Positions 30,997-55,518 are shown, numbered from the stretch's first letter. The stretch: 64,000 nucleotides of DNA from Yuukianura sp. NJ FZ-2021 (GCA_046563655.1 CM102289.1:2976001-3040000); one strand, 5' to 3'. Made by a program: numbers and translations. The notes: generated by a model not told the origin, from the sequence alone.

Positions 30997-32006
30997 ATGG
31001 AGTATAATATTAGCGACTTGCCACGAGAAGTTACAGCCTCTGCGTCAGCTCGAGAACCTCCTACTGAATATCGCGTCGTTCTACTCCTCATTGCAGTGCC
31101 ACTTATTACAGTTACTGTCGTTGGGAATCTAATGATCATGTTAGCTTGGATTGCCGACGCCCGTGTTCGAACACCGTCCAACGCCTACCTAGCATCTTTG
31201 GCCCTCGTAGATTTCCTAGTTGGAGCCATCGGTATGACACTGGGCCTCAAGTACAACTACGAAGGAAGATGGAGCATGGGCGTCGGTACTTGCCAATTTT
31301 TTCATGCTTGCATGCACTCTACAATCTTCGTCGGCTCAGTTCACCTTGTCCTGATTGCACTTGATCGCCACAGAATAGTATTCGAAGGAGTGTCGTACAT
31401 TCAAGACAGAACGTACAACGGAGTAGTTCAATGCGTCTTGGCCAGTTGGGCTGGAAGTCTCTGGATCATCATACCGATTGTCATTGACTGGGAGCATATT
31501 GGATTTGACCCAGAGGTCAAAGTTCATTGTCTTCTCAAGTCAACTATTCTAGGTACATTCTACTGGTGTACACTACTGATTGTATTTCCAGGGGTATTGA
31601 TGGTATGGCTCTACACCAGAATATACTTTGAAATGAAGAGGCGATGGCGACTTCGGGAAGTGAGTAAGCAGGTTATTATTCCTGACAGTTCCGGTCAAAC
31701 GTCAACTACTGGTGAAACTGGGGCAAAATTGACCAAAACTGATCCAAGGTCGGCCCAGCAGAAGGAAAAAGAGCCTTTGTTACACTTGGCATTCTGATTG
31801 GAATCTTCTTTGTTTGTTGGTCACCGTATGGATTTACGCTGTTGGCTCGTGCTGCTGGGGTCAATGTACCCAGAGCCCTTCCAGTGATCCTGGCAAGTCT
31901 TGGATGGGTTAACTCTGCCGTTAATCCTATCGTCTATGCCGTGAGAATAGCCAAGTACAGAGAGGCTTTCAAGCTTATCCTATCTCCAATCTACAATTGC
32001 AAATGA
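30997..32006 (+). CDS. Class A GPCR, second subfamily (copy C), 1-nt frameshift near 31770
   Basis: Homology continues in another frame after the A-run (AFVTLGILIGIFFVCWSPY...NSAVNPIVY) to TGA at 32004-32006. Confidence 0.85.
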
Positions 32007-33297
32007 ATTTTATTTATTTCAAATTTTGCCCCATATTTGTCTTAATTTTTTTTTTGGTTTAAAATGCTACGTATTCTGAAATAAAGTGTGGGAAGTAATT
32101 TAAAAAAAATTAAGTCCTTTAAAACATTCCAAGTTTGAAAACCTCGACAAAATTTCTCACTAAAAATAAAAGTTGCACGACAATATCATAGACCCTAGGA
32201 TGTTGGCGGAATTGTATGCGACCCTGAATATTGGAGTTAAATAGTAGTGGTTAACACTAATTTTATTTCAACGTTAGTAAAATTTATTTGCTTCATTTTT
32301 TTTAATTTTTTTACAGTTTGCTCTTTATAACTAGTAGCAATACCACTTCCAACAAGCATCTTGTTTCATCAAGCATCAACAGCAGGATTTTCCACCTTTA
32401 GATGCCAGTTGCGGAGTGTTGTTCCAGAAGGTCACCTGCCGCTCATAAGTGCAAGCTTGTAATCGTTCAATTTTAGGACAGTTTTGACCTTGTTAAGAAA
32501 GAAACTTTAGTTGACTGAAATTATTTGAGATTTTTAAATATTTTGTCGTTACCAGGCTGTGATGTTGATTCCACAAGTCCGACTACTCCAATTGCCAGTC
32601 CAAAATATACATGTCATTACCAATTTAAAACAGATTAATGGTTAAACAAAGTTTATGTCGAATGGCATTGAAGAAAACCAGTTTTCCTTGGCTGTACCTT
32701 GGAGTCAGGCATTATTAAATGCCGAAAAACCGGTTCTCCATACCATTCTTGTTGTGTAAGCTTTCCAAATTTAATTGTTTACTTTAAAATCTTTTCACAA
32801 TAATAGAACGGAGTGATGGAAGTATGAAGCATAGAGCCATTAGTTTTCCCAAACTTTGCCTATTTACAGTGCCTGCTTAAAATTCGGCAGGAGTGACAGT
32901 TTACAATAAGTATTATTCAATTTAGGCCCTAATAAAAGAAATATTTCACCTTTTTCGAAACGTTTTTTTGAAGTAATTTTGTGTTTATACTAAACCTTAA
33001 TGTTTATATGATCGAATGAGTGCAGAGTTTAGGTGAGGCATTTAGTCTCCCATTATTCGCTCCCATATCCCATTAGCTTTCAATTTTTTTTTTGCAGCAA
33101 AAACGAGTGCGAAATCGTACACAACCTTGACCAACGATCCCAATGCTCAACTGAGACCAGATTAATTCTGACAGTCACACCGCTTAGTTTAGATTAGTTT
33201 TGCACATTGTGTCCGTTCTCAAAACACTGAATACTGACTGAGAATTGTGTCAGTCTGTTTTCTTAACATTGTTTTTCAAATATTTTGTCACAAACAA

Positions 33298-36200
33298 ATG
33301 ATGGGGACGCCTTTACTACTCATTGTCATAAGTACTACTCTTCCGATTCTCATTAGCGTCCTCCATGGAATCAACTACTACTGGGATTATGTACAATGGT
33401 TTTGGACGCCAGACGTATCTACACAACTTTTCGATTTCATTGTAGGTAAGTGCAGACTAATTTTGAAATGGCACATAAGGAGAATGTATTTTGGGAATAC
33501 ATGGGTGTGCTATGCGACCTTTTAAAAAGCTTGTAAAAGTTCTTCATGAAAGTTTTTCATTCAAGAGTTGGATAACAAATTTTGAACTCAATAAATTAAT
33601 AAATGGATAATAAATTTATTAATTGACTAAAGTTGGAGCTGGTAGCAGTGGTTCTGTGTTGGCCTACAGACTTGCTGTACAAAATTACAAGGTATTACTC
33701 ATTGAAGCTGGCGGCGATCCTATTCTACTTAACAAAATTCCTGGCATAGCCCTTGACCTCTTACGCTACAAGGAACATGACTGGAACTACAGGACAAAAA
33801 AGCGGGATAACGTGGGGCTCAGTCACACTAATCAGGTTAAACAAAATAAGAAACGATTTTTTTAACTTTCTATTGGCATACTATTATAATCCCATTGAAA
33901 TATGCAGGTTGCAAATGTTCACACGATACTGATGAATTTTTTTCATTGAAGGAAATGTATGCTAACCGTGGAAAAGTTCTTGGAGGAAGTAGTACTCTCA
34001 ACTACATGTTTTATATGCGAGGTCATCCACTCGACTACGACAACTGGGCTAACATTACTGGTGACACGAGCTGGAACTATGAAAATGTGTTGCCTTACTT
34101 CAAAAAATCTATCTATGATTACAGAGGCCACTTTCCAGAAAACAGTAGACACTAAAAGCATTTTTTCGACAACTTAAAATTTTGAATTGTTTCTTGAAAT
34201 AGTTTGTTTTATTGGTATTTTCTGAAGAGCAGCAGTATGAAACTTCCCCGTATGGATTCTTGACCATTGATAAAATCAGGTTTGGGAAAATGATCGACTC
34301 GTTTTTCGGTGCGGGAGAGGAGCTTGGTTACACAAGAAATATTGACGCCAACGGGCCACAAGTTGAAGGTATTCAAGAACAAAATTCTAATTTTTTTTCA
34401 GTAAACGTTTTTTTTGGAGTTTGGTTAAAAAGCTTTTTTTCCAAAATATTTTTATATGGTTGATATAAATTGGGTTTTGTTTTTTAAAGGCCTTGGTATG
34501 GTAGAGTCGACTCAAAGGAATGGAGAACGTGTTTCAGCATACGACGTAATTGAGCAAAACAAAAATTCTTTGCCGAATCTAGTCGTTTCCAAGTATTCAC
34601 ATGCTTCCAAGGCAAGTTTATTTTTTCTATACTTTTTGGGCTTGACAATTATAAGTAGTTCAACTTAGAGAAAAACCGTAAATATTTTTGTATTCAAAAA
34701 TTACTTTTTAAAAGAAAAGAGTAGCGGATCTCGACTTGGTCAAAGGCATAAATGTCGTAGTAAGGTGAAGACAAAAAATTGTAAACTTTGTTTGTGAAGA
34801 TGAATCCTAATTATGTTGCAGATCCAGTTGGATAAACATGGAAATGCAGTAGCTGTTGATTTCTATCGACATGGAATAAAGTACACAGCAAAAGCATCCA
34901 AAGAAATTGTTGTCAGCGCAGGCGCTTTCGACACTCCTAAGCTCCTCATGCTTTCAGGCATTGGTCCAAAGAAGCAATTACAGTCGCAGAAGGTGTAAAT
35001 GTCATACAAAATTGTTAAAAAATTGAAACTTGTTTGCTTTGTTTCAGATCAAGGTCAAAGTTGACTTGCCAGTGGGCCAAAATTTGCAGGACCACTTCGG
35101 CGTTTTGGTACTACCGTTTACGACAAACGCCGGTACTTCGTTTTTTCTTGAACGTGACCTGGGATTAGGTTCTTTTTTGGAATATTTTACAACATCGTCA
35201 GGTAAAAATCAATTTGAAAAAAAATTCCGCTTTACCACTGTTCATGATTAACGTTAGTTTTGTGTTTCTAAGGACATCTTTTTATTCGTAGGAATATTGA
35301 CTTCTCCAACTGGCGTTACTGCACAATTCTTTCAGTCGTCCCCGAAAGTAGGTAATCGTAAATGGGCAGATATTCAGACGTACTTGATTCCTGTGTCGCC
35401 TTCGAAAGTATTGGCGGAGTCATTTGGCAGGGCGCTGAGCATTAAGCACGAAATATTCTCAGAATTTATGGATCCAGCTGAGGGCAATGACGGATTCACC
35501 TTGTTAACAATTTTGGTTAGACCAAAAAGTCGCGGTGAAGTCACACTCAGAAACAAAGATCACATGTCAGATCCAGTGATTGGTAAACAACTAGACTACT
35601 ATAAACTAAACTACTTGAATTTGACGCATCTCAAGTGTAAATCGTTTATCGTTTTCAAAGATCAAAATCCATTTTCTCATCCTGACGACATCGAGGCATT
35701 GACTTTTGGTAAAAAATTGAAAATATCCGCCGTACAAATTAAAAGCAAAAAAATTTTTATAAATAGCAAGTGACTAAAAATATATTCCAGGGATTCGTAA
35801 CGCCTTGAAGCTTGTAGAGACGAAGAGTTTCCAGAAAATAGGAGCTAAGTTCAAAGGTCCTCACTTTTCTGCGTGTAAATCGGAACAGTTCGGAAGCGAT
35901 TCCTATTGGGGTTGTTACATTAAGCACGTAACTCTCAACGCATGGTATGCAGTAATTACGTATAATTAGTACTTTTGTTATTTGTTTTACTATTTCCATT
36001 TTATCTAAAAACTACTGTAGGCATCCGGTTGGTACATGCAAAATGTCACACAAGGACGATCCGACTGCTGTAGTTGATCCTAAGCTTAGGCGAGTCTCAA
36101 ACTGCCATAGACATTTTACATTTGTGGCAAACTAAACCAAAAAATGAAGTTGATTTTTCTAGAATTCTTTCCAATTTTAATTTTTTTTATGGAAGTTGGT

Positions 36201-36438
36201 GAATTTTGTTTGTGTTCGCAGAGTGCTGGGGGTAAAGTCTCTTCGTGTCGTTGATGCGTCTGTGATGCCAGTCATTGTGAACGCAAATACAAACGCCCCA
36301 TGTATTATGCTCGGTGAAAAGGGGGCCGATTTTATTTTGGAACATTGGGCAGAACAGTCGCTCGTTTGCCCACATATGCTCCTAGGCCCAGACCCTAACA
36401 AATGCTACTACGCATCTCGGAGACGGAATTTTATTTGA
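33298..36438 (+). CDS. GMC oxidoreductase (glucose dehydrogenase/alcohol oxidase family), many exons
   Basis: 'FDFIVVGAGSSG' FAD motif, '[14 protein letters not shown]', 'LMLSGIGP', 'GQNLQDH', 'HPVGTCKM', 'LRVVDAS', 'NTNAP'. Confidence 0.95.
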
Positions 36439-37269
36439 AGATTTGTGAGAATGAAAAACATATTATACACTTGCCCAACAGTGATCGAGTTGTTGCATAA
36501 TATTCATTTTTTTACTTCTCATAAACTGATCAAGGTAAATAGAATACTAAAATAGGTAAGGTCATTTAGATTTTTTTTTTCAAAAGGAAGTTGCAGTGGG
36601 GAATTTTTTCACTCGCAGTGACGTCATTTACAGTGCTGCACGACATTCTTACCGCTTTAGCTTCAAAAGTTTCACCGTTTACTTCGAAAAAAAAATACAA
36701 TTGCACAAAACGCAGTCTCAATGTATTGTAACCATAGTATTTAATTTTCATGACGTAAAACATACCACCCATATTATTTTTTCAAGAAAATTGCAAAATA
36801 GTAGAGTCCGTAAAATTTTAGCATGTCAGGAAGGAGAATTGAACGAAGTGTGAATTTAATTTTAGAAATAACTTTGAACAACTTTTTGTCTTTGTTTAAG
36901 GAAGTCTTAAATTTGGTTGAAACTGAATCTGAGTAATTAAATGTTTCTTTGTAAATTAGAATCAAGCCTACATGCATTTTGAAAAATGTCCATTACGCAT
37001 ACTTAAAACAGCAAACAGAAAATTATATAAGAATTTTTCCATCATATCAATCCTTAAACTTCTTACCATAATTCGGCTATAAAGAAATTGAATTTATATT
37101 AGATACTAATTTTGAAAAAGCTTGTAATGAAAGGAATTCAAGTGTTGAGAAAACCAGTTGAGAAAATAAAATGCTGTGAGCCAATTATGCTCTAAATAGT
37201 AGTTCTAAACTTATAATTGCTAGAAGCACTTAATTCCTGGTTCCAGGAAAATGTGGAAATGAGAGGTGT

Positions 37270-40200
37270 TCAAGTAAAAATTTTGTTCTTTTTGGATTTT
37301 TCGTGTTCCTGTTTTACGGAATTCAACAAGCGTCGTCGAAATAACTCTTGTGGTGAAAAGGAATTTATAGCTTCAATTCCCGGTAGGTTTTTAAGAGTTT
37401 TCTTACTGTAGTCCCTGTGAAGAGCTCGGTTCCATTCGTTGCCCAAAGAATGAAACGCAAACACATTTGATTGTCCAGTCTCTGCATCTGCGTAGATTGG
37501 AAATAACGGTCTCATTAAATCATCATCCAAGTCTTCAAATGCAGCGTCCCTCCACTCCGTAAATTCAACGACTTCAAATTCAATGCCCAACTCCGCCCCA
37601 ATTTCTTTTGCGTCTTGCTGAGTAATTTCTTTGACGTTGATGAGATTGTACACACCAGTTTCACTTTCGCTGTTACAGAAAATTTCGGCGCAAATACGCG
37701 CACAAATATTGACAGGGAATACCGGAATTCCTCCAGAATGAACAAGGTTTGGAAATTTCCTTAATCTGATACAAGTTGAAATCAGGGTCCAGACGTGATC
37801 GAATCCTCTATTGGGTATTCCCGTGACGGAACTCGCATACAAAAATGGAATTCGTAAAAGCGTGACTGGAAGTCCGGCTTCAGCAGCTTGTTGCAGCAAT
37901 GCCTCACAAATGCTTTTGGACTGAAGATACCCATTTTGTATTTTTTCAAAGGAATTCAGTGGTAGCCAACGTTCTGGGATGGTCCCGTCTGCATCCAGTT
38001 CCGTCACACATAACAAAGCCGATGGATAAATGATATGTTTAAGTCGTCCATCCGTACAGAATCTGAGGATGCGCAGAAGGCCCTTGACATTGACAGATCT
38101 CATGTCATACCCAGAACCGTCATAGTAACTCTCAATATGATTGACCTTTGCACCACAATGGACAACTGCGTCAACTTGTTGAGTTAACAAATCGTATTTT
38201 TCCTGCGGCAATCCAAGCAGGTCATGACAAACGTCTCCAGCAATCACAGAAATTTGGTTAAAGTTGACCTCTCCCAAGAGGTCATAATATGCCAGAGTTT
38301 TCTGAAGAATATCTCGTGCAGTTTCATCAGAAGCTGCTCGAACCAAACAAAATATGTTGATTTCCTTATCCATTTTCTGAATTTCTGGAAGAACGTGCGC
38401 GCCAAAGTGACCAGTCCCGCCGGTCAGCAATATTGATTTAAAATCTCTCTTGACTACGGTTTGCGCGGAGACAATTGCAAAATTTTCTCTCATTTCGCAC
38501 GGTAAAATTGAGTCCGATTTCAAAACTTCACTCTGGTCCAGCTGAGCAGTTGTCTGCGGATCCTGGTCAGTCGCTAGAACTCGGGCCAAATATGACGATA
38601 ATTTTCGAATAGTTCGATTCTCCTGAATTGCACTGATTGGCAGGTTACGAGCGGTTAATTTTTCTAAACGTGTTTTCATTTCCATCGCCATCAGAGAATC
38701 CACTCCCATTTCGCTCAGTGGCTGATCAATGTCCAGAACTTCGTCTTTTGGAAGCCTCAATGTTTCTTTGATAATGGACTCGAGGAACGCCTGAAGTTTT
38801 TCTTGTCGTAGACTTGGGTCACAACCTTTGATGAGCTCAATTTCCTTTTGCATTTCTGCTAATCTGTCTACATCTTCTTTTTGAATTTCCACTTCATCCC
38901 AGTAATGATGACCCAAGGAAAAAAAAGTTTTCATTATTTTCCAACCGCGCGTTGGAACGAATCCTATTTGGGGCATCTCAGTATTCATCATTTGTTCTAG
39001 TGCCATCAAACCCTCGGAAACTGGAAAGCCTTTGAGCCCAACTCTGTTTTCTTGATCGTTCGTGATCCCACGTCCTGCTCCAATTCCCTTCCTGATTAAA
39101 AAAAAACGATGTTACCTATTGTGTACGAAAATACGCTTTGACGTTTTTCTCACGCTATTTGCGTTTTTTGTTTTGAATGTTTGGTAGTTTTGCAACAGTT
39201 GAACAACAACCAGAAAAAGTCCATCACTAGTAACATATAACAGAAGCTACATGTGTAACACCCGAGATGGCGTTCTACCCTTGCCAATATTCAAAGTAAC
39301 CTTTTCCTACTTAACAGTTAGATTCAGAAAAAAAAATATTTTGCAGGAAATGCCAGTAAAAAACTACAGGAAGGTGAAAGTTGCATTGAAAGTTATGCTT
39401 CAAAATAAATTTTTACCACAATCCCCAGTTGATGCTCGTTGCAGGAAAGCCCATTGAGTGACGATACCAAGCGAATCCGTCCAAGTACTTGTTTGCAGTT
39501 GTGTGCGGCGCTTGACCGATACTGCCAAACAGTGACGCTCCTGAAGAAAATAAAACGAAAAACTCCAAATCCATGTGGAGGGTGTGCCTATGCAAATTCC
39601 ATGCGCCGTGGGCTTTTGGAGCAATTGAAGCATGCAATGTCTCCCAACTTTGCGTTTCAAATGCCGCGTCGTGGAGTACGCCAGCGGCATGGAAAATTCC
39701 CTTTAGCGGTGGTAAGGTTTCGGACTCTTCAACTGTGCGAAACAGCCTGTCGCAATCTTCTTTGTTTGAAATGTCCAAATTTAAAACCAGTATATTGAAT
39801 CCTTTCGTTCTCAAATCATCAACAACGGCCTGCGCCTGCGTTGAAGCTGCAGTTCTACCCACTAAAACAATGTTTGAAGCTCCCTTGATTGTCATCCATT
39901 TTGTCAATTCAATTCCTATTCCTCCGAGCCCACCAGTAATAAGATACGTAGAATAGGAGTTGAACATCTGATAAGAGTGAAACAGTGAGCCATTCTGCAC
40001 TTCTGTTGTCGGCATCCGCAAAACTACTTTTCCGATTTGTTTAGCTTCTTGAAGGTAGTAAAAAGCAGTCTGAATATTTTCCAAAGAAAAGACTTTACAC
40101 GGTAGTGTTGGAAAGCTGTCTCCGAATTCTTGTTCCATTTTGTGCATGATGTCAGGAAAATCGCCCTGTCCCATAAAATCAAGCCCCACCAGCTCGATAA

Positions 40201-43200
40201 ACTTGTATTCAACGTCTGGACGCTGCTGGCTCACCTCCTCAGTTGTCCAAATGTTCATTTTGGCTAATTCAACAAATCTGCCGTTAAGTGCAGTGGCTGA
40301 AAGAGAGGCTTCCTTGAATCCTGGTCCAGTGAGACAGTTTAGCACAATGTCTACCCCTTGTCCATTTGTGTCATCCAATATTTGTTGTCCAAAGTGAGTG
40401 TTTCTTGAGTTGTAAACATGTGTGATTCCGTAAATTTGTTCCAAAAATCTACGTTTTCGTTTTGATCCAACCGTAGCAAAAATTCGGCCTCCACATTTCT
40501 TTACAAGGTCAATAGCTGCAAGACCCACGCCGCCAGATCCAGCATGAATTAGGACCCGTTCGCCTGGTTGTAATTTTGCAATATGATGCAATGCGTAGTG
40601 TGCGGTCAAATACACGATTGGGCATGCAGCGGCAGACTCAAATGAAATTCCTTTTGGTTTTTTCCACAACCCCAGTTCCGAAGAAACCGTGTGACTCGCG
40701 ATGGCGCCATTGATAGAGACCCCGACAACCTCATCTCCAACTTGATAGCGAGTAACTTTCGTGCCTACTCGTGTAACGACTCCGGAAACATCAAGCCCAA
40801 CATGGTCCAAATGCTCTTTTGGAATTTCAAATTCTTTTGGTTTGAGTACACAAAATATGTCTTTGAAGTTGAGTGCACAGGCTCTAACCGCTACTTCAAC
40901 GTCGTTCTCCCTTAGATCACTAGCCGTGTCCGGATCAATCTTAATATCAGCGAAGTAGCCACTCGCTGGGTTTATAAACCGATACCGTTCGCAGTTCGGA
41001 AGTTTTACTCTGGTACGTTGCGGTATCGAGTCGACAAATCGCAGCACGTACGTCCTTTTACCTCGAAATACCGTCGCTTCCTCGGCCTTTGGACTAAACA
41101 AGGTTGCAAACAGTTGACTTCCTTCGTCTTCCGCTTCCACTTGTCCAAAGTCTATGAGAAATGGATCGTGTTTTGGATATTCATTGCGAAAGGCCCTCAC
41201 AAGTCCCCACAATGCTGCTTTTTTTGGATTTGGAATTTCGTCATCTCCAATTACAAACGCTCCGCGGGTTACAATTCGAATTTTGGCATGCTTCGCTGTG
41301 TGTGTGTCGGCGTAAGTTTTGAGCAACTGCAGGAGGCTACCGATATATTTTTCTTCTTCACCGGTCAATTCACTGTCGTCATTTCGTGTCCAGAAGAATA
41401 TAATTCCTTCCATATTGCCGTCTAGCAGCACAACTTTTGGAACGCAATCTTCGACACTATATCGTGTCACATTTCTGTTTGACTCTTGAAGCAAGTCGAC
41501 GACACTTGCAGCCAATGAATCTTGGTCCGACACCAATATCCAGTTAGGCTTTGAATATTGTTCACAACTTAGTGCAGTATTATTAGGCAACAACTGCGTG
41601 TTTGATTTGGTAGCTACAACTACCCCGTTGGGGTATGCGGCCTCGATTGTTGTAATATTTTGAAATCCAGTATTTTTCAAAAGTTCCCGCCATTTATCAG
41701 AGGATATGACTGGTGTAACGCTTCCTGCCTCCTTTCTGAAATCGCTGAATCTCCACCAACCTTCCAATAACCCAAATACCAACTCGATATTTTCAATAAT
41801 TCCAAACGACTCAGCAAAAATTAAACGACCCCCAGGTCGCAGAAGCACTCTCAAGTTCTGTAGCGTTTCTACCAAATTTCTCGTTGCATGCAGTACTTGA
41901 CTTGCTAAAATTACATCAAATGATTCTGGCAAATACCCTTGTGGTAGTGGATCTTGCTCAATGTCGAGAGTTTGGAAAACAACTTCAGTGTAGCTTGAAA
42001 ATGTTTTCTTCGCCGTTTCGACAAGAAATGGTGAAATGTCTGTAAACGTGTATTCAAACTGGACGGAGGTCGACTTAAACTGCGAAATTATCATTTGAGT
42101 AATCATACCACTTCCGCCTCCTACCTCTAAAATTTCAAGTGTAATCAAATTCTTTTCGCTGGGACTAATTGGTTGATTATGCTCGTCGGTGTAGTCCGAC
42201 ATCGGCATCACTAAACTATTAACAGTTTGCATCAAACAGTCCATAGCTAGTTCACATTGAAGCCTGTAAGTCAATTCCTCGTTGTAGTATGCAATTGCGC
42301 CAAGTTTCGACGTGTCTGCGGGGAAGTGGTATTCGATGGGTGACATTCTACCACTTAACACAAGTGGTAGTTCGTCGTAGAATTTTTTCAGCCATCGACA
42401 ACTGAATCTTACTTCGTCATGTTTATATGACCTAGCAAGCAGATCTGCGATAGTTGCATCGATATTTGAAGGCGATTCTAGTTGTTTCAGTGCGTAGTAT
42501 CCCGAACCTACCGAAATTGGAACACTTTGAATGTATCCTTCTTTCTGAAGCTTGTACAGATAGTAGTCAACAACTTGTGCTGGAACATTTTCAGGAATTC
42601 GACTTGTCCAATCTTCGCGGTTAAGCACCAATCCCACCTTAAAACAACAATATAGATTACAATTTATTTTGCTGCAAGTATTCACTGTGTATAACGTTTA
42701 AAACCAATTACAAAACCTAACTTCAAACAGCTTGTATATTGTGTATGTTCACGAGTTATCTTATTTTGCTAACCTGATACGGCCAACTACAAAGTTGAAT
42801 TGCGTTAATAATTGACAAAATTCCGAACTTGTGAAAACTCTCATCCGAATGATTGATGTCGTGAACCCGTTGCAGGCCACTCAAAGCTGTTTGCAGTTTG
42901 TCAGATTGTTTTGATACGTTGCAGAAATTTTTGATAACATTCGATGCCTTGGGAGTAAAACTCGGAATTGGGCGCCAAACTTCGGCTGAAAAATTCATAT
43001 TGTTTGGGACTTGATGTTCAATGGAGTTCAACACAGTTTCAGCTGTAGTTTCAATTAGTTCCACTCCCTTTAGCTCAAGTAGTACATTTCCATTTTCGTT
43101 TATCAAAAACACAGCATGGTCGTCGTCGTTCTTATCTGGGAAGCAATAACTGTATAGTGTAGGTGTGAAAGTTTCTGAAAACCACGTGATTTGCTCTATT

Positions 43201-46200
43201 GAAATTGGTAGACATATTTTGTTTTCTCCATCGTTCGAGTTAGTATTTGGATCCACAAAGTATGTTTGAAGTGCTTTTGTCTGAAATAGTGAGTCAATTA
43301 CAACAGGATGACAAATGTAGTCCGACGGATTTGAAATTTCTGAGATACAAATTTCTGCTAAAAATTCGCCAATGTTTGAGGCGTATACGGATTTTATGCT
43401 TTGAAATCTTGGTCCGAATTCTATTCCCCGTGCGGCGATTCCGGAGTAAACACGGCCGATGGCTCCAGATTCTTTTTCTTCTAAGCGCCCCTTGATCTCG
43501 CTAATGTCAAATTGGATTTTACGTGAAACTTTGCACCCTGGTAAAAATTTTGTTGAAATGTTCCTTTTGAATGTTCCATTTTTAAGCTTTTTGAAAATTT
43601 CCAAGTTGTAGGAAACTCCGCGTTCAGTTTCAATTTGCTCGACTGTTGTATGCAGCTCCACGCCAGAAGCTACGTCGAGAGCCGCATCAATCCCAAATTT
43701 TTCTAAGGTTAATGGGCATTTGAGAGTACCGCCTCCTTGTAAAATTTCACGAGCAGCCCCAAATGCAGTTTCTATGAACGCCGCAGCGGGATATACCATT
43801 AGCCCAGCAACTTTATGATCTGCCAAATATGGATAATCTTTTACGTTCACAAGGTTTACGAACGTTCGTACCGAAGCTGGAGTGCAAACTGCAAAACCGA
43901 GCAGTGGGTGCAACTTCTCGTGTTGTGCAGTTCCACCAAAGATGAAGCCGTTCTGTCCATTTTCTTCACTCTCAGCTTCGTCGCTTTGCCCTATCCAGTA
44001 AGATTGTCGCTGAAATTGGTATTTCGGGATGTCAAGATGTTGACGTCTGATGGGTGTTTGACCTCTCCAGTCAATCGTATGGCCTTCTAAATACAGCTTG
44101 ATGAGTGAATTTTGGAATGTTTGACCTGTGGTGTCGGAACGCCGAGCAGAAGGGGCAAGACACAAGTCCGTGAAAGATGTGTCCGCAGCATTTGTCATCG
44201 TGATGCCAAGAAGAACAGGGCTGGGCCCAACTTCAACAAAAGTTTTGAAGTCATCTTGAAGCAAAATTTGAATTGCGCGTGAAAATTGAACTGGGTTGCG
44301 TAAGTGGCGTTTCCAATTGCCAGGACCAAATTCTTCACCAGTTTCTACTACTTTTGCCTCCGTTCCAGAAATGAACTTTAATATTGGTTCCACCTTTGTT
44401 GTTTCAACGATCGATTCCAGTTCAGTTCCAAATGGTTTAAGAACGTCGTCCATTTGTCTTGAGTGAAAGGCGTGTTGTGTTGAAATTCCAACTGCTTCAA
44501 CTCGTTTTTTGATGCAAAATTTCAAAAATTCATTGATGGTTTCTGTTGGCCCAGATACCACGACTTCGCTGTTTGAGTTTACCGCTGCCACATCAATCCA
44601 CTCATTCTGCCGGGAATTTTGAAATTCGGCAATCAGGAGTTTTGTCTGCTGTTCGCTGCTGGTTACAGCTATCATCGATCCTTTCTCCAATTTATCTACC
44701 AAACGACTACGAGCTATGATTAGTTTCAAACCTTGTTCTAATGACAAAACTCCCGCCAAAATCGCTGCCGTAATTTCCCCCAAGCTGTGACCAAGAACTG
44801 CCTCAGGAACAATTCCAAAAGATTTCCAAAGTTGTGTCAAAGCGTATTCCACTGCGACGATTGCTGGTTGGCAATAGAGTGATTGGTTCAAGAGATTTGG
44901 ATTTTCCCACATGACGTCAGTCAGCTTTTTTTGGAGGCAAGCTTCAAATATTTCATTGGCTTCGTTCAGGGCATTTCGAAAAACTTGGAATTTTTCTGCG
45001 AAATGCTTCAACATTCCTGTGTACTGACAACCTTGGCCAGGAAATAGAAAAGCAACTTTTGTGTTGCCATTTGATGCTTTGGCGTAAGACCAATCCTGGG
45101 ACTTTAGTTTTTCCAGAACTTCTTCAACCGATGACGCAGTAAGAGCAATTCGATGCGTTAGTGGAGCACGAGTAACGTTGACAGCATAAGCAAAATCTTG
45201 CAGAGCGATTTTTGTATTGTTTTCCAAAAATTTCACATAGGCCGCAATCAAAGCATTCAAACTTTCTTTAGATTTAGCAGAAATTGTGATGATAAGCGGT
45301 CGATCCGTTGTTCCCAGAGTAGCTGCTTCAGCACGAACCGCTGGAACAGCTTCCTGTAGAATGACATGGACATTAGTCGCGCTCATGCTGAAAGAGCTTA
45401 CCGCGCAGATTCGTTTCTCGGTGGTCCACTCAGTTATTTCCGTTGGAATAATAGCTGGAATTTGATCCAAGTTAATGTATGGATTCAGTTTGTTCAAATT
45501 CAAATGCGGTGGAAGACGTTGCTTTTGCATGCAAAGAATTGCTTTGATGACACTGGCAATTCCAGCGGACGCTTCGCAATGCCCAATATTAGTTTTGACT
45601 GAACTGATGTAAAGCGGGGAGGTTCGTTTTTTTGAATAAACCCGCCGAATAGCTTCCATTTCGATTGGGTCACCTACAATTACACAAAAATAGTTTTGAA
45701 AAGAGCTTGTTTTAAAAACAAAATACGAATCCTGTCAAAAAAAACTTACCAACGGGAGTTCCAGTTCCATGAGCTTCAAGGAATGAAACTTGATCCGGAG
45801 TCACTCCTGCTTTTTCCAGAGCCTTTTCAAAAACCAGGACTTGAGCCTGTGCATTCGGAGTACCAAAACTGCCTCCATTTCCGTCGTTGTTCATTGCACT
45901 GCCTCGAACAATTCCCAAAATGTTGCAACCAGCATTGACTGCCTCATGAAATTTTTTCAAAATCACAACGCCACAACCTTCCGCTCTGAAATTATAGGTT
46001 AAATAATTTGTTGAAAATTGCATTTTTAATACATTATTCTCCATATTCAAACCTATATACTCATTTAATATTTATAATTCTTACCGCACAAATCCATTAG
46101 CAGATTCGTCAAATGTTTTGCACTTGAAATCCTTCGAAAGAACAATGGAGTCTCCCTCCACTTCCATTGAATCTGTAAATGGATTCGCTCCAATAAGAAT

Positions 46201-46988
46201 TAAGTTAACGCCACCCGCAATTGCAAGAGAAGATTCTCCATTCAAAAGGCTTTGACAGGCCAAATGTATTGCGCCAAGCGACGAAGAGCACCCAGATTCA
46301 AGAGCAATTGCTGGGCCTAAGCGACATAAAAATTGAACGAATTAAAATTAGTAAATAAAATTACAAATTAAAAAGGTTAAAAAAAACTAATTAAAACATT
46401 ATAAATAAAACTTTTTTGTGTACCGTGGAGACCAAGGTAGTAGGACACTCGTGATGCAGTTGCGCTGAAAGCATTTCCGAAGTAGCGGTGGAACAGATCA
46501 TTCGCATCCCGCGTCGTTGTGTGCAGAATTCTGTCGTAATCTGGTTGCCAGATTCCTGTAAAAACTCCCGTAGACGTTCCTCTTAGTTCGTGAGCGTTGA
46601 TTCCTGCATCTTCCAAGCTTTCCCATGCCACTTCCAGAAGAAGCCTCTGCTGAGGATCAATCAACGGAGCCTCTCTCGGGCTAATTCCAAAAAAATTTGC
46701 ATCGAATTCATCCACGCGGCATTTCAAAAATCCCGCCTTGATGTCCGATTCCAATCCAAATCGATTTTTGGCTTCCCGCACTCTTTCTTCCGGAAATGGC
46801 CGAATGGCATCCTCACCAGAGCAAAGCACTTCCCAAAATTCTTGTGGGTTGTTTGCACCCGGAAATCTACAGCTCATTCCTACTACTGCAATTGCATCTC
46901 TCAGCACGTCTTGCTCGACAATTGCGTTGTCTATGACATTGCTATTGGGCAGCATGCCAGTACCAGAAACAGCATTCCAAGAACCCAT
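37270..46988 (-). CDS. Highly reducing type I polyketide synthase: KS-AT-DH-cMT-ER-KR-ACP-thioester reductase (~3000 aa, ~6 exons)
   Basis: KS 'DPQQRLLLE', 'ESGCSSS', 'HGTGT', 'NIGH'. AT 'GHSLG' and 'HAFHS'. DH 'HKVAG..VYP'. MT 'LEVGGGSG' and 'VLHAT'. ER 'LIHAGSGGVG'. KR 'ITGGLGGIG'. ACP 'GVDSL'. R domain 'LTGGTGHFG' and 'GYLQSK'. GT-AG introns present. Confidence 0.95.
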
Positions 46989-49626
46989 TTCGCCTACTTG
47001 AAAGAGAGTTGAAAACTTGAATCAAACAAAATTCAATTTTAAAAATTTAGGTTTGAAAAAAAAATGATGTCTGATGTGTGATGTTTGAAAACTTGATATT
47101 TTAAAAACGCTGTGTTTGCCCGTACGTTGATCTTCTACAAATCAAAGGTTTAAAAGTATCCGTTAAGAACTGAGAGTTTTGGGTGGGCAGGCGCAGATTT
47201 TATACAAAACGATTCTGTTTGCAACCACCAACAATAAAAATTATTCGCACGATTAAGATAATTTTAATTATGAAAACTGGATTTCCTATTTAGAAGGACT
47301 TCGAGCACTCACAGAGTATGTATTTATTACATTTTTTTGCTGTAATTACGAAAAATGTTTTTCTGGGAATCCAGAGTTTACATCTTTTCCAGTGGTTCTA
47401 GTTTCTGAAATTTTTAAATGGATTATTATTACACCACATGTTTTAAAGAGTGTAGCCTTATTTTTTGAAATTACAATATTTTACTTTATTTTGTAATTTG
47501 AATGTATGCGAATTCTTTACGGATATCGTTTTACCGATGCATAACCTAAATTGACGGCCGAACATAAGAAAAAACAAAATACGAAATTCCAAGCTATTAT
47601 GTCTTATGTCTCACGACTAGTGACTTCATGAATTTTTGCTAATTTTTATCAATCTAAGTGTTTCAGCTGGAGACTGACAACAAACGGGCGAGACTAATTT
47701 GTATACTACGAATCCACCCACGTACTCGTCGTATTCTCAAAGGTTGTACTTAAGTGTTTCCATATACTATGGCAACAACTCCTGCAACTTGAAAAGTTAG
47801 TAACGGATTCAACTTGTTTAATAGCGTAGGTCATTTAAATGCAGATTGGAAGTACAAAATGTGGTAGAAGAGGATAGCATACTGATCGTTTAAGCAACAT
47901 ACGATAGAGTTTAGTTGTGTCTAGGAAATATGCTGCTTTGGATTTGCTCCATTTTCACAGATTCCAGTATACATCATATGCTTTTTGGATTGCAATTAGC
48001 ATAAGTTACATGGCCATGGAAGGAATCGGTTTGGCTTAGAAGCTTTACTAAATATGGTTAATGCTGCTGTGATGCTAAGATCAAACTGGAACGACGCTAC
48101 AGAAAGTATTGACGCTTTATGCTTTAGAATTTATGATAAAACATATGAAGGTTAACGGGCATTCGAAGGTGATGGGAATGGGAAATAATAATTGCGCAAA
48201 ACAAGGAAAATTTTCAACAACACAATTAGCAATATATTGTACATGTTTTGGTCAACGTTTCCAAGTTTTCACATACTTGCGGATGTTTATTCGACGAAGG
48301 TTGTAGAAAATTAGTAGAAGCCGGATTCGAGAAAATGATAACTTTTTATTATTATTAACTTTCACACGGTTTACCTCTGAATTAAATGTTTCCCGCACAA
48401 TTTTTCACAAATGATAAAGCAATAACCTGTCAAGTCTTTTATAGAAAAGAAAATGATAATAAAGTATTATACTCTATTATAATTAGTACAATCAATTAAC
48501 TTTAAATCGAGTCATTATACCTTTTCAATTCAACATTTGCAATGTACGGCAAACCTTGTGAGGGGAAGAAGGGGTTAACCGAAGATGGTTCATTTTTTGT
48601 TTTCAGTATTTTTTTTTTTGGTTTCGAATGTATTAATAGTTAGTAGTGTTTTTTGGAATCGAATTTAAAAATTTGGAGTTTTAGGATATTATTTTTGTAG
48701 AAAAATTTTCCGAAAATGAAGTACGTGGTTTCCACTTTAGAGTTACTTTTCAAATTTTTATGAAACTGAACATTCCATATACACAGGTTACGACATTCTC
48801 CCATGTATTTTTTTTTGCACTCAAATCGAATATGTTTTCCAAATTCTGTTTTCCCCAAATTTGTACGTTTGGAATTAGATGTATTAATACATTGAACTAA
48901 CGAGTGTAATTTCCCAAAATATAAGTTCAAGGATGTTGTTAAGAGTTTAAGAGATGTTTTATTCCATTATAATAAGAAACAACGTATGAGAAAAAAAACA
49001 ACTTACAATACGTAACCATAAAATTTATTATTTAACGTGGAAAAACAAAAACAAATTTATTAATTTATTTTCTAACCAAAATTAATGATTAGAAAAACAG
49101 AAAACAAATACTTTTGTTGAAGCTATTGATGGGAGCAACTGATTTCAACTTTTTTTCTCATTTATTTAGCGTAGCGTAGTTTCATTCATTGTGTTTAATT
49201 TCACGGAGAATATTGCGGAAAATTTGTTGGTGAAGGAGGTTACTACAAATCAGAAAGCAGAACTCATTTCTCACGCACTAAAATGCCAATTTTAGTCTTC
49301 TGGAAACGAATATCTATGATTTGCAGAAGAAGACTATTACTACGGCTTCGTCCGTCTGCATGCCACATTTGTTTGGACTTGTTGAACTCAAACATCAGCC
49401 AATTCCCTAGACAAACAGCCCCCTTCCCATGGCGGTATGTGTACATTACGGTGAAGAGCGCACTTTCACAAAGTAAAGCAGGGCCGTCATTTTTCAATAC
49501 AACGCACTTTCTAACAAATTGCATAAAAATGAACTAAGTTTTGAACCGTTCTGACATTGGGTCTGACGCCGCTGTTAAATTGAAACAGAGCAAACTCTTC
49601 AGCGTGACCCTTCAATAGGTATTACC

Positions 49627-49913
49627 CAAGCTGGGTGAACAAGAGGTTAAGCATTAACTCGGTTTTTATATTTCTACACCCAAAATTTCAAAAATGAAAA
49701 GTCATCACGACTGGTCTCGTTTCCTTGGAAATTTTAAATAACTTAATTTTATGGTTTACCTTCCAACTTAAATTTGGTGCAAAATTTCAAACTTTTTACT
49801 AAAAAAAAGATCAACAAGTTCAGAGTAAAAAGTTGTTTGCTGCGACATTTTTGGAAAACAGGACTTATTGCTTAACCTCTTAAAGCATCACAATGGTTGC
49901 TATAGCAACCTTG
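49627..49913. mobile_element. Second copy of the CAAG...CTTG MITE family seen at 19939-20221
   Basis: Colinear similarity along its length (gaacaagaggtt..., ctcgtttccttggaaatttt, catttttggaaaac.ggacttattgc.taacctcttaaa, gcaaccttg). Degenerate GGTATT-containing flanks. Confidence 0.8.
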
Positions 49914-50877
49914 GGTATTGTCCATACAGTGTATAGCTGGATTCAAATTTTTGTTTTTAAAATTTTTGACTTGTATTAGCAAGGTGCACGTACAACCCTG
50001 CACATTGGGCACTAAACTTAACAAATTGTGCCTTTGCCTCAACCTTTAGCCTCAGCGTCACCTAAAATTTAGTGCATTCAGTCCCCTGCTTGCTTTCGCT
50101 GGATATTATTATTTGTGCATAATTGTGCATACATGTACTTACATGTTGAGCAACGAGTACGCGCTGACAACTATGTGCAGCTGTTTCTAAAATTGCTGTT
50201 CATACTTTTGGACCAATATGTACACCTTTGGGACAATTCTGAATTGTGATCAACTTTCAATACTTCGAACCTGTACGGTTCAGCACTAAAAACTCCACCA
50301 GATTATTGCAGATATCTCGAGCCCGACAGCTAGAACATGATTTTTGTTTAATTCTTGCACACAAACTATGCCGGCAATTCTACACTGCAAATTTTGCGCG
50401 GCATTTGAAGTAATATGTAAATTGCCAATTCAAGGTAATGCAGAAAGACAATCGGAACCCTCTAATTTTCTACTCTTTCGAAACACCTATCCAAGAACCC
50501 TTGAGCATACCCATGCATACCAGCCGTACCTTGTTTTTTTTTCATATAATTATGCAAAACCGTAGTAGTAAGAAATTACTTCCATACATCATGATTTACT
50601 TTTTCGTCGTAACTTTTAGGGACGCCATAACAACACTCTAATTGCAAAACATCCATCTTGAAAAAGAATGATACCATCTTCGCCAACCTTGAATAAATAA
50701 TTCTATACCAACGCTTATGCCAATTCAGTTTGCTCAGTTGAGCTTATTTGTTTAACACAGTACATGACTGGGTTTATTCTGGGTAGCAAGTATTACAAAA
50801 CAAGGAGCTGTAAAAAAAAATCCGCTATTATACTTTACTTTTACTCTCACTTTCCAATAACTTTTTTCCGAATTGCA

Positions 50878-53800
50878 ATGATTATCAAAAAACTGGTCCT
50901 CAATTTTCTGGCATTTCCGCCCTTTCTCTTGTTTTTAGTGATTGTATTTCCATTTCTAGCTGTCCTTTGGTTACACCGTATCATCGTCACTTTAATTTTG
51001 AAACCGCTGTTTCGGAGAGACTTGAAAGAGGCCAATTCTGGGATTGAACTTATTTACTCCTTTGAAAAGTATTGGAATGGAACGCGAGAGGCGATTTCAA
51101 TGGTGAATGTCCTTCAAGGGACGCTGGATGTTGATAAAGTGAAACAACGGCTGATGGACGTGATTTTGTACAAACGACTCAGCAGTTGTGACGAAATTTT
51201 AAACTACGACCGTCTCACAACGCTCCACCCATTTAAGTGGATGGGTTTTGTATTTTGGAAGGTCAGTTCTGAAAAATTTGATTTAGAAAAGCACGTTTGT
51301 GTTATCGACGCAGACGCACATGTGGAAAATTTCAACGTCAATAACACACTGGTCGAATGGCTCAGAAGTCCGTTTCCGAAGGATCGTCCGGCTTGGAGTG
51401 CAATGATTATTCCAGGTATTTATGTAGTAAAATCCAAAGTTAAATTTATAGTAAACAGCCAAAATTGAAACAGTATACCATTGTTTTATTGCAGATTAGC
51501 ATTACGTTTATACCGGGCGTCCTAAAACTTAATGCACGCTTTCATCAAGGAGTAGGATTAGGAAATTATGCGCTTCTTCCGATTTTGGCAATTTCTATGC
51601 TTAGAGATCTACCTAAGAAACTTAATCAAGGGGTGATATCTGGTGCTGCATGATGGTCTAAAAGCAAATGTCAGATGTAACGATTTCCTAAGTCTATGCT
51701 TTGGTGAAGGCGGGCACTAAGTTTTCGGACACCCTGTAGTTAACTTGCATGTATTGTAGCATATATTTCGGATGTGTATACATCATATCCTATACATCTA
51801 TATCATACACACCTAGCTTATTTGTATGTTATACAGCCAATTTCAATTTCAATTTCAATTTATTCTGAAAGTTTCCTGCATTAGCAGGTTATTACACCTC
51901 AGTTAGGTAATCTAATTTAAAATTAATATTATATTTAAAGTTATTGTGTTCTCGGCTAAGTTTAAGATTATCGTAAAATTTTAAAAGAGTGATGTGTGAG
52001 ACCTGGGGAAAAGCAAACAAGCAACACCTTAAAACTATGGAAAAGGTTATTCGTTCCGCGGGAAGATTTGTACTCAACGTGAAGAAATTTGATCCAGTGA
52101 AAGCGAAGGTTACGACCGAATTGAACTGGCTCTTTCCCAAACACCTAACTGATTACCGTACTACATTATTAGTTTCGACTATCATCTCAGGAAACTGCCC
52201 AAAGTACTTTATAAATTACTTCAGCGAAGTCCAGTCTACTCAATCAAGCACAACTACTAGAAAGAAAACTCATGTAGCAAATTTAAACCGGAAAATTCAT
52301 CCTCAATCCTTTAAATCAAGTGGTTTTCGCAAGTGGATGGAGACGGAAGAGGATGTACGACGTCTTACCAATCCAATTGCAATAAAAATGAAGCTTAAGG
52401 AACATTTTATGAAAGCTCAACACAATGAACTCGGACGCCGAAATGATGTTGAGGAAGAGGATTGACAACTGAATATGCATCTTAATAATACGTAAAAATA
52501 CTTATTTTAGCAACGAAAGATTTAAAGTAAAATAATTATAAGTAATTCATCCTATATCACAAATTTTAAAAAAAAACAGATTTATACAACATTTAAAAAA
52601 AAATACCATTTAGAAACTCCACTTCTCAACAATAATCCTAGTAACTATTAATATACGCACCTTTTTTTTTTTTTTAAAATACAACTGATACATTTACGCT
52701 AAACATATTGGCTAATATTAATTACAAGCTATAAAACTATCATTAATACTTATTCTGAAAAGCCTGCCAGAAACAGGAGAATAAATGAAATGAAATGAAA
52801 TGAAAGTGATGAATGTATAGATAGATTAGATGTTTTAAGGTGAAAATTTAGACGGCTAGTTAAGTAGGTGATGATTGTGAGTCGATTCTGTTTGTATTTT
52901 GTACATTAAATAATTCTATTTGTTTGTTTAGGAAAAATTTCAAAAAATTAGTTTTAGCCTTAATTGAAACGCAGCAATTACTGAAGACAAGATGTTGTAG
53001 ATCACTAAGGGGTCCAAAAACGTAATGCACGCTTTCATCAAGGAGTAGGATTAGGAAATTGTGCGCACCTCGTACGCTTCTTGCAATTTTGGCAATTTTT
53101 ATGCTTAGAGCTATACCTAAGAAAGTTAATCAAGGTGTGATATCTGGTGCTGCATGATGGTCTAAAAGCAAATGTCAGGTGTAACGATTTCCTAAGTCTA
53201 TGCTTTGGTGAGGCGGGCACTAAGTTTTCGGACACTCTGTAGGTAATTTACATGTATTGTAGCATATATTTCGGATGTGTATTATATACTATACATCATA
53301 TCCTATACATCTATATCATACACACCTAGCTTATTTGTATGTTATACAGCCATACCACATGCATCTATATAGTATATTTTGTATGTCGTAAATGTATGTT
53401 TTACACAATAATTAGTATATTTGTATAAAATTCAAGTAGATTACATCCATATGATGATTAAAATTTGTTGTTCAGGTTATAAAAATGAGCAGGGACAAGA
53501 GAAGTCGCTCGTTGCGTTCCGAGTTCATCACGTGGTATCTGACGGTTACTCAATGGTAGACTTTATCGGACGACTCTACGATGAACCACACTACAGCAAT
53601 GCACATACTCGAACACTCAATGTCTACGTTGACATCATTCAGCAATTATTTTGGTCACCACTTACCGTATTCAGCCTAGTAAACACTTACGTCGTCAAAA
53701 CCGTTGCGGCAATTTTCGCCTCGTCACTCAAGAATTGGCTTCGAAACAACAAAAGCTCAAATGAACGGCAAACAATGACTTTGATCACAACGCATTTTGA

Positions 53801-54668: not shown

Positions 54669-55518
54669 GAGCAAGGTTGTTTGACTAAAAAAAGTTAATT
54701 TTGTTTAGAGCAGGTTGGGCACTACAAACCTTGTCGATAAAAAAAAATGCATCAATTTACCAATCTGAAAAATTGGTACCAATTCGTATGCAAATTTTAA
54801 TTTAAAAATTGGCTGTATTGTTATGTATTTGCTGTATGATGCACCGAAATGAAAAGACTTCTTCCAAATTAAAAAAAAACATGAAGTATTCTTGTTAAAG
54901 AAAATTGTAAGTCAACAAACCTGCTGCTTAAGAGAAATAATTTAAATTGTCTAAATCTTAAATTCAAATTGAACAACAGCAATAATCAGAGGAATGGCTC
55001 TAAACGTCCTCTGAGTTAGAACTTATGGCATTGGCAAACAGAATTAGAAATGTGGTTACTTCAGAAAAAAAATAGTGAGAGTATGATTGCAGAAAGGCCG
55101 TAAAAATTTAAAACCAAAAACAGCAGTAGCAGTAGGAACAATCTAAAATTAAAGTTGAACTTAAACTTCCAAAATATATATTTATCATTTTCTAACAATG
55201 AAAGTGGGGCAAGCTGCTTTTTCTCCAGAATTGTTTGATTAGTGTTTGAGTGCAGCTAGTGAGTGAGTGAAATAACTTTTTCAACAATCTTTTGATTTAC
55301 TGTCACTACCCTTCCACGATCAACGTAGTTAAATGGACCACATTTAAGTGAGTGCTCTCAATGACTTTGCTACTATAGCGTCTCATTTTCATTTGCAGTT
55401 TCCAAAAATAAAAAATGTAATTGATTGAAGTCGTGCAGAGGTCTGCACCTTCTACTATACAAAAACCTATGACAATCTGGATGAATAAATTTTCTACAAA
55501 AAACGCTAAAGTGTCATT

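Follow-up and report, generated by a model that had tools for sequence, protein, structure and literature searches.

A stretch of 64,000 nt from Yuukianura sp. NJ FZ-2021 (GCA_046563655.1 CM102289.1:2976001-3040000, hereafter the window) carries on its minus strand, at 46988-37270, a gene for a type I polyketide synthase (PKS) with an intact reading frame interrupted by five introns. We read it, with a probability of about 70%, as an intact single-module and presumably iterative PKS of bacterial type in an animal genome, which would extend its chain with malonyl units, methylate it at carbon with S-adenosylmethionine (SAM), possibly reduce it, and release it reductively as an aldehyde or alcohol. 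All positions are counted from the first letter of the window.

The coding region runs from an ATG start codon at 46988-46986 to a TGA stop codon at 37272-37270, and the coordinates proposed in an initial annotation of this DNA proved exact. The spliced coding sequence (CDS) of 8,976 nt is made up of six exons and encodes 2,991 amino acids without a single internal stop; an open frame of 2,991 codons cannot have arisen by chance in DNA of 37% GC. All five introns, whose presence had been noted from the start, begin with GT and end with AG. They measure 107, 99, 76, 136 and 325 nt (introns 1 to 5), have a GC content of 0.17-0.33 against 0.43 in the CDS, and leave the frame open across every junction. 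Three of the five interrupt the CDS within its first 1,033 nt.

Exon 1 (46424-46988) comprises the start codon and the N-terminal half of the ketosynthase (KS), including the motif DPQQRLLLEVAWESLEDAG. It is followed by intron 1 (46317-46423, GC 0.17) and by exon 2 (46085-46316), which holds the active-site cysteine of the KS in the motif ESGCSSS at about residue 198. Beyond intron 2 (45986-46084, GC 0.19), the beginning of the KS_C domain with the histidine of EAHGTGT lies in exon 3 (45750-45985). Intron 3 (45674-45749), in phase 1, splits the Gly codon of GTPVG/DP. Exon 4 (42774-45673) contains the end of the KS with its NIGH motif, the linker to the acyltransferase (AT), the AT itself at about 45050-44094 and the dehydratase (DH) at about 43910-43035. 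Intron 4 (42638-42773), in phase 0, separates it from exon 5 (39417-42637), where Pfam and structure matches place the C-methyltransferase (MT) at about 42136-41651, the enoylreductase (ER; Pfam ADH_N/ADH_zinc_N) at about 40909-40019 and the ketoreductase (KR) at about 39952-39417. After intron 5 (39092-39416, phase 2), exon 6 (37270-39091) encodes a linker, the acyl carrier protein (ACP) at about 38784-38587, and a thioester reductase (R) domain that was matched at about 38427-37693 and continues to the C-terminus and the stop codon.

The splice junctions are supported by the profile coordinates of the domains they interrupt and by a relative. Across introns 1-3, the Pfam coordinates abut: KS_N profile positions 2-166 in exon 1 are followed by 165-237, and KS_C positions 2-58 by 57-118. 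The KR profile stops at position 178 of 180, exactly where exon 5 ends. Finally, a metagenome open reading frame (ORF), P0121, has no intron at the site of intron 4 and reads through the junction unbroken, with PYE-VGRIIKPEDW corresponding to PYQ/VGLVLNREDW of the PKS.

Pfam assigns the protein the order KS-AT-DH-cMT-ER-KR-ACP-R, with matches for the KS, a KS-AT linker of the CurL-like/RhiE-like type, the AT, DH, methyltransferase, ER, KR, PP-binding and NAD_binding_4 domains. The same scan of the protein found no thioesterase, the C-terminal position being taken by the R domain, and no product-template or cyclase domain. The catalytic triad of the KS is complete (the Cys of ESGCSSS and the His residues of EAHGTGT and NIGH), and it stands on one polypeptide with the GHSxG motif of the AT and the DSL serine of the ACP, as is characteristic of a type I PKS. 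FLFPGQGCQYTGM lies at residue 553, GHSLGE at 639 and HAFHS at 745. The pair GHSLGE and HAFH in an AT indicates malonyl specificity, and on the strength of the HAFH motif the AT is predicted to be specific for malonyl units. The DH keeps HxxxGxxxxP and DxxxQ, the ER keeps HAGSGGVG, and the ACP has GVDSL.

The methyltransferase appears to be of the active type. Its SAM-binding motif LEVGGGSG is found at residue 1481 and VLHAT at residue 1559; its core aligns with the C-methyltransferase of CurJ at 127 bits in a comparison with solved structures, where LEVGGGSG/LEIGAGTG, VLHAT and LLEGWW are conserved. The His of VLHAT is followed 26 residues later by a Glu (in FAE), and both are conserved in P0121. 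Such a His and Glu pair forms the catalytic dyad of C-methyltransferases. The C-terminal domain matches NAD_binding_4 at E 4.7e-45 and directly follows the ACP. It aligns with the thioester reductase of MxaA at 119 bits, with TGGTGHFG and the Tyr and Lys of GYLQSK (Y2773 and K2777) in register, and thus combines the extended-SDR motif TGxTGxxG, the Tyr/Lys pair and the position of a terminal thioester reductase.

The architecture with a terminal reductase in place of a thioesterase, the two methyltransferase motifs, the malonyl-type HAFH and the two quoted KS/AT motifs, DPQQRLLLEVAWESLEDAG and FLFPGQGCQYTGM, had all been claimed in the initial annotation and were all recovered. What it had overlooked concerns the KR, which is present but lacks its catalytic tyrosine. 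A CAC codon at 39503-39505 encodes His2356, in the motif GQAPHTTAN, at the position held by the catalytic Tyr in mycocerosic acid synthase (MAS; GQGAYAAAN) and in EryAI KR1 (GLGGYAPGN). The domain retains the NADPH motif GGLGGIG as well as the Lys, Ser and Asn. The same His is found in P0121 and in a second metagenome ORF, P0004, and thus in all three members of the family that cover the site; the ER and KR together are 56% identical to those of P0121, comparable to the 57% of the AT. A literature search on ketoreductases with His for Tyr turned up nothing specific among the matches listed. Full reduction by an enzyme without this Tyr cannot be taken for granted, and the reduction level of its product is uncertain.

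The PKS is an integrated animal gene, as its introns and animal neighbours had suggested at the outset. This conclusion follows from host-like composition and codon use, from contigs that bridge both ends of the gene, and from the animal genes around it. The GC content of the PKS is 0.433 and its GC at third codon positions (GC3) 0.39, compared with 0.41-0.46 and 0.38-0.45 in five neighbouring ORFs. The correlation of relative synonymous codon usage (RSCU) between the PKS and the neighbouring ORFs is 0.84, which exceeds the value of 0.78 that one half of the PKS gives with the other. Contigs and depth of reads were examined over 32000-51000 in four public runs (X1-X4), which represent one sample from one study. 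A contig of 9,756 nt from X1 spans 32000-37399 and joins the neighbouring gene, a GMC oxidoreductase, to the 3' end of the PKS; a second one spans 46827-51000 and joins exon 1 to the upstream flank. Both ends of the gene are thereby linked to its surroundings in DNA contigs, which is the read support that had been asked for. X1 is possibly the source of the assembly, so this linkage is consistent with the assembly but does not support it independently. The depth of X1 is 28-79 across the PKS and 36.5-58.5 across the flanks. In X2, the depth over the PKS likewise equals that over the flanking animal genes; X2 and X3 show single-base differences in the PKS and in the flanks alike, at comparable depth. 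The gene therefore has the canonical introns, the host-like composition and the physical linkage to host genes of a spliced host gene.

Two places in this region differ between runs. Contigs of several runs break or have loose ends at about 36550 (36548-36569), between the two convergent genes, and contigs of X1 and X2 jump from 49611 to 49915, with 8 different letters in place of the 303 nt. Indel or repeat polymorphism, or else a difference between assemblies, is the probable cause.

The closest named relatives of the protein are bacterial. Among solved structures, exon 4 (KS_C-AT-DH) scores 341 bits with CurL over its KS-AT part, about 240 with DEBS and 216 with MAS, ahead of the PKSs of other eukaryotes (Dictyostelium PKS16, 177; CTB1, 166; LovB, 143), and neither fatty acid synthase (FAS) nor EcPKS is found among its best 60 matches. 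For exon 1, with the N-terminal half of the KS, bacterial PKSs reach 100-146 bits, LovB 78 and animal FAS 72-79. For exon 5 (MT-ER-KR), the scores are 302-314 with MAS, 208-215 with FAS, 179 with EcPKS1 and 150 with LovB. The resemblance of the KS and AT to microbial PKSs that had been pointed out earlier is thus borne out, with scores far higher for bacterial PKSs than for FAS, animal FAS-like PKSs or LovB. Grouping of the KS with animal FAS had been named beforehand as the outcome that would speak against the reading; in these pairwise comparisons on exons 1 and 4 (rather than in a tree), the KS appears closer to PKSs than to FAS and would not be classed as FAS-like. The C-terminal thioesterase and the pseudo-methyltransferase of animal FAS are also missing. 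A search of longer proteins with exon 4 returned multi-module actinomycete PKSs in 119 of the 120 rows listed, a result in which single-module proteins are crowded out; with exon 6, the matches listed were bacterial and reached no more than 25-28% identity. The Atlas clusters nearest to the PKS exon are bacterial as well.

No prokaryote relative exceeds about 38% identity over at least 550 residues among the matches listed from metagenome contigs and from one genome per prokaryote species (at least 79 loci). Three Legionella genomes (L106, L108 and L118) contain 36-42% matches to the first 200-230 residues of exon 4 that are spread over about 4 kb, an arrangement that is odd for a bacterial PKS gene.

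We then placed the protein in a tree of the KS_C-linker-AT region, computed with IQ-TREE in short-search mode with SH-aLRT support only. Its 60 rows are the window protein, five family ORFs, 13 unnamed hits and 41 named bacterial sequences. The window protein, P0121 and P0001-P0005 form one clade with SH-aLRT 100 and a stem of 0.81. Its surroundings are PKSs of the bacterial cis-AT type, from cyanobacteria, Chloroflexi and deltaproteobacteria, and the adjacent branch is a Desulfobacterales sequence (SH-aLRT 93, not starred).

The closest member of this family is P0121, an ORF of 2,023 amino acids and the top match to exon 4, with 51% identity over all 966 residues. It extends through the MT, ER and KR and ends at INWG, 2-3 codons short of the end of exon 5; P0004 ends likewise, 2-3 codons before that point (INWG/IDWG). 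P0001-P0005 are 38-47% identical to the exon 4 query. P0121 and P0001-P0003 begin just past the site of intron 3. The His and Asp of the DH and the GGVG of the ER are kept in the window protein, P0121 and P0004 (three of three). P0004, which runs from the DH almost straight to the ER region, has no methyltransferase; an MT is therefore not carried by every family member. A scan of metagenome contigs gave at least 78 loci, and nine of the 78 were checked with the whole protein (L001, L004, L008, L009, L036, L047, L064, L068 and L075). Only L047 is a family member; the other eight resemble intronless bacterial PKSs. L047, a small contig, has a KS 61% identical to that of the PKS; it lacks introns 1 and 2, and a GT-AG intron of 80 nt in it has the phase of intron 3 and lies one codon further upstream.

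The reductive terminus also recurs. In an exhaustive search without profiles, exon 6 (ACP-R) matched 12,427 proteins at E <= 0.001, 251 of them at E <= 1e-30, and the top matches are ORFs of the size of an exon: P0365 (48% identity), P0374 (42%), P0366 (39%), P0367 (38%), P0378 (36%), P0368 (35%) and P0372 (33%). These relatives retain the DSL, Tyr and Lys sites where checked, and the Tyr and Lys of the R domain are kept in P0365-P0367. P0365 begins 8 residues ahead of the position that corresponds to the start of exon 6. The family thus shares the reductive terminus, and the exon-sized ORFs point to an intron close to the boundary of KR and ACP as another of its traits. Introns are seen directly in the PKS and in L047, and the exon-sized ORFs point to them in the other members. 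The KS_C-AT tree contains at least seven family members, and exon-sized ACP-R relatives number at least seven as well, so the gene is not a one-off insertion.

Among characterized systems, the bacterial cis-AT modules (CurL of curacin, DEBS and MAS) are the best solved-structure matches and share the motifs and the type of KS-AT linker. Identity to them is only 33-40%, and the gene described here differs from them in having one module only, in its introns, in its animal host and in the His of its KR. For the C-terminal domain, the best match is the terminal reductase of the myxalamid synthetase MxaA, at about 30% identity; reductive release by MxaA yields an alcohol. The closest long ACP-R proteins among the matches listed are cyanobacterial PKSs of the type KS-AT-KR-ACP-R (25-28% identity). 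The full domain set is found in a protein of 2,957 amino acids from the planctomycete Rosistilla ulvae (P0283, named 'mycocerosic acid synthase' at its source), which demonstrates that the KS-AT-DH-MT-ER-KR-ACP-R architecture exists in bacteria. P0283 is distant, with 24% identity over ACP-R, 27% over KS_C-AT and a long branch far from the family. Fungal highly reducing PKSs such as LovB have the order KS-AT-DH-MT-ER-KR-ACP, an active MT and an iterative mode of working in common with the gene, but LovB is far less similar than the bacterial PKSs for exons 1 and 4, and reaches 95 bits for the MT core. Animal FAS and the animal FAS-like PKSs (AFPKs; EcPKS1/2) share the general megasynthase layout and, as seen above, moderate ER-KR scores; in contrast to them, the PKS has no thioesterase, an MT that appears active instead of a pseudo-MT, and a less similar KS.

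Genes of this kind are already known, and a few similar ones have been reported in soil invertebrates. By description, PKS genes of bacterial look, held to be horizontally acquired, occur likewise in the small invertebrate genomes of a springtail, an oribatid mite and bdelloid rotifers. Folsomia candida has 30 type I PKS clusters, and most genes in its biosynthetic clusters were flagged as transfers (PMC5490193). In the mite Archegozetes, the KS domains group with Streptomyces yet have a host-like GC content, and have been linked to benzaldehyde defence compounds (PMC7542773). Bdelloid rotifers have acquired genes for nonribosomal peptide synthetases (NRPS) and PKSs (PMC11258130). The domain order found here, the R terminus and the His of the KR are not given for the springtail, mite or rotifer PKSs in the parts of this literature that were covered. 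Nor do those parts describe the exact architecture, the family or the KR His elsewhere; the antiSMASH table of Folsomia and the supplementary alignments of PMC10764717 lay outside this scope and could list the architecture already.

For the origin of the gene, the initial annotation had offered an ancient horizontal acquisition or an animal PKS lineage. In the second case, which we consider a serious contender though somewhat less likely than not, the family would belong to an old, vertically inherited lineage of animal PKSs (the clade of SpPks1 and of bird, fish and mollusc enzymes), and the bacterial look would be common to all animal PKSs. The echinoderm enzymes SpPks1 and CrPKS, compared here by description, are single-module PKSs with the same KS-AT-DH-MT-ER-KR-ACP order, they have no thioesterase, and their KR lacks the Tyr too (PMC11414698). 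Mollusc PKS genes have few introns, located at the N-terminus (PMC10764717), which recalls the early position of three of the five introns of the PKS. The fully host-like composition and the limit of about 38% identity to the prokaryotes listed would also fit an old animal lineage. On the other hand, the echinoderm enzymes have what is described as a pseudo-MT and lack an R domain (PMC11414698), whereas the PKS keeps the SAM-binding and catalytic motifs of its MT. Named animal proteins are absent among the matches listed, which is a weak point, given the crowding out of single-module proteins in the exon 4 search. According to a survey in which AFPKs are widespread, true PKSs are few in arthropods and the springtail PKS is treated as horizontally acquired; the same source notes that a few sequences from arthropods carry R domains and that one clade of molluscs has an active MT (PMC10764717).

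If the PKS is a bacterial-type enzyme of the kind proposed, its AT would load malonyl units on the ACP and the KS would extend the chain, and we infer that the single module does so iteratively. The SAM-dependent C-methyltransferase would methylate beta-keto intermediates at the alpha carbon, and the KR/DH/ER loop would reduce them in some or all cycles, provided that the KR with His for Tyr is active. The NAD(P)H-dependent thioester reductase would finally free the chain as an aldehyde, or as an alcohol after a second reduction. The product would then be a methyl-branched polyketide aldehyde or alcohol; were the KR dead as in SpPks1 and CrPKS, it would be a methylated aldehyde of aromatic or pyrone type. 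Within our preferred reading, the chances of a reduced aliphatic and of an unreduced, aromatic-type product appear roughly even.

The second outcome corresponds to a separate proposal, plausible but less likely than not, in which the KR would be dead, the reductive loop would serve a structural role only, and the enzyme would work like a non-reducing PKS that makes a C-methylated aromatic or pyrone aldehyde, such as a methylated hydroxybenzaldehyde of arthropod defence. Fungal methylated-benzaldehyde synthases, the citrinin PKS among them, combine a C-methyltransferase with an R domain in this way. The His replaces the Tyr in each of the three members that cover the site, and the echinoderm PKSs without this Tyr are described as making aromatic pigments with KS, AT and ACP alone (PMC11414698). 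Moreover, 2-hydroxy-6-methylbenzaldehyde is synthesized de novo in the oribatid mite, which also expresses PKS domains resembling those of bacteria (PMC7542773). Against this stand the GGLGGIG, Lys, Ser and Asn that the KR retains and the nature of the replacement, which is constantly His and not variable. The ER and DH motifs are kept in all three members, the ER and KR match the AT in conservation, and Pfam finds no product-template or cyclase domain. Taken together, ER/KR conservation and the constant His would speak for an active KR, and the echinoderm precedent would speak against one.

The expression data centre on the GMC gene. Run X4, listed as guessed DNA, yielded contigs with seven GT..AG joints in that gene, with introns of 76-187 nt. 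This is the behaviour of an RNA library and shows that the GMC gene is expressed and spliced. Cover by X4 extends about 730 nt beyond the GMC stop codon, toward the 3' end of the PKS. Another X4 contig departs from the window sequence at 37297 with 255 unmatched letters.

Several observations weigh against our reading of the PKS as an intact, working enzyme of bacterial type. X4 covers the PKS thinly and only in parts of exons 6, 5 and 4 (bin depth 0.06-8.7): contigs at 37373-37982 have a depth of about 4.8, the bins up to 39607 have 1.1-3.5, and traces occur at 41510-43411, with no cover at 39608-41509 or from 43412 onward in the gene. This cover could stem from read-through of the convergent GMC gene. 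No splice junction of the PKS was seen in any of the four runs, and one X4 contig departs from the window sequence at 42776, 2 nt from the donor site of exon 4, with 185 unmatched letters that do not fit the exon 4-5 junction. The departures at 42776 and 37297 may come from a paralogue, from alternative transcripts or from chimeric contigs, and we take the X4 data neither for nor against expression of the PKS. By the usual criterion, the Tyr of YxxxN, the KR would be inactive. The introns of the relatives lie near those of the PKS but not at identical places, being one codon off for intron 3 (L047) and 2-3 codons off for intron 5 (P0121 and P0004), and the ORF of P0005 begins near the site of intron 2 and has no intron 3; what we claim for the family introns is closeness of position, not strict homology. 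Finally, the tree contains bacterial and unnamed rows only, without animal PKSs, animal FAS or fungal highly reducing PKSs, and so shows the monophyly of the family and not its origin.

Nearly all catalytic residues are preserved in the intact frame of 2,991 codons, which speaks for a gene rather than a relic. We rejected a microbial contaminant, a chimeric assembly or a dead transfer relic as highly improbable, even though the best named relatives are bacterial and splicing of the PKS is not seen in the four runs (none of them on record as RNA), since the five AT-rich GT-AG introns, the host-like codon use and GC content, the contigs across both flanks and the equal depth of PKS and flanking animal genes in X1 and X2 speak against a contaminant or misassembly, and the intact frame makes a relic unlikely.

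The neighbouring genes confirm the animal context. The GMC oxidoreductase has many exons (33137-36435, plus strand; Pfam NAD_binding_8, GMC_oxred_N and GMC_oxred_C) and is convergent with the PKS, the two stop codons being about 835 nt apart. Exons of a cytochrome P450 were identified by Pfam at 55309-57400 on the minus strand, 8 kb upstream of the PKS start. The stretch between the P450 and the PKS contains open frames of 162-255 codons on the plus strand, at 50701-51465, 51977-52462 and 53412-54038, and none of these three has a Pfam match. A tandem array of rhodopsin-family G-protein-coupled receptors (GPCRs; Pfam 7tm_1) occupies 10696-32003 on both strands. It comprises at least nine genes, some of which consist of a single exon (27707-28774 and 29557-30591) and others of 2-3 exons. 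The Atlas clusters nearest to a GPCR neighbour are all metazoan, from several phyla, and contain 'moody-like' or orphan aminergic-like receptors; these metazoan clusters identify the host as an animal. Domain searches also found a major facilitator superfamily (MFS) transporter at 1.4-2.4 kb, a peritrophin-A chitin-binding protein at 58.3-59.6 kb, and an ankyrin-repeat gene and a UDP-glycosyltransferase (UGT) exon at 63.6 kb. The short introns would fit a small invertebrate genome. No Rfam match was found in the window.

The GMC oxidoreductase is a possible tailoring partner of the PKS that could interconvert alcohol and aldehyde. GMC enzymes carry out this interconversion in leaf-beetle defence. 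Both the GMC and the P450 families are large in animals, so their adjacency to the PKS is weak evidence. A bolder possibility, and an unlikely one in our estimate, is that a diverse, vertically inherited family of bacterial-type PKSs with R domains in small invertebrates has a selected His in its KR and that the PKS forms, with the GMC gene and perhaps the P450 and the UGT, a true animal biosynthetic gene cluster. Its product would be a methylated compound of aldehyde type for defence or signalling, so far credited to symbionts or diet.

Complex polyketides of animals have long been credited to microbes. Arthropods have few or no true PKSs as far as described (PMC10764717), which makes an intact, host-adapted PKS of bacterial type, with an active-type C-methyltransferase and a reductive mode of release, a concrete candidate for a route by which an animal makes aldehydes and alcohols de novo, branched or aromatic ones that might serve in defence, as pheromones or as cuticular lipids. 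The conserved Tyr-to-His replacement in the KR is an enzymological oddity that can be tested, and it bears on how animal PKSs may switch between reduced and aromatic products. The gene thus merits follow-up by expression analysis and enzymology, chiefly for this KR and for the possible animal PKS cluster.

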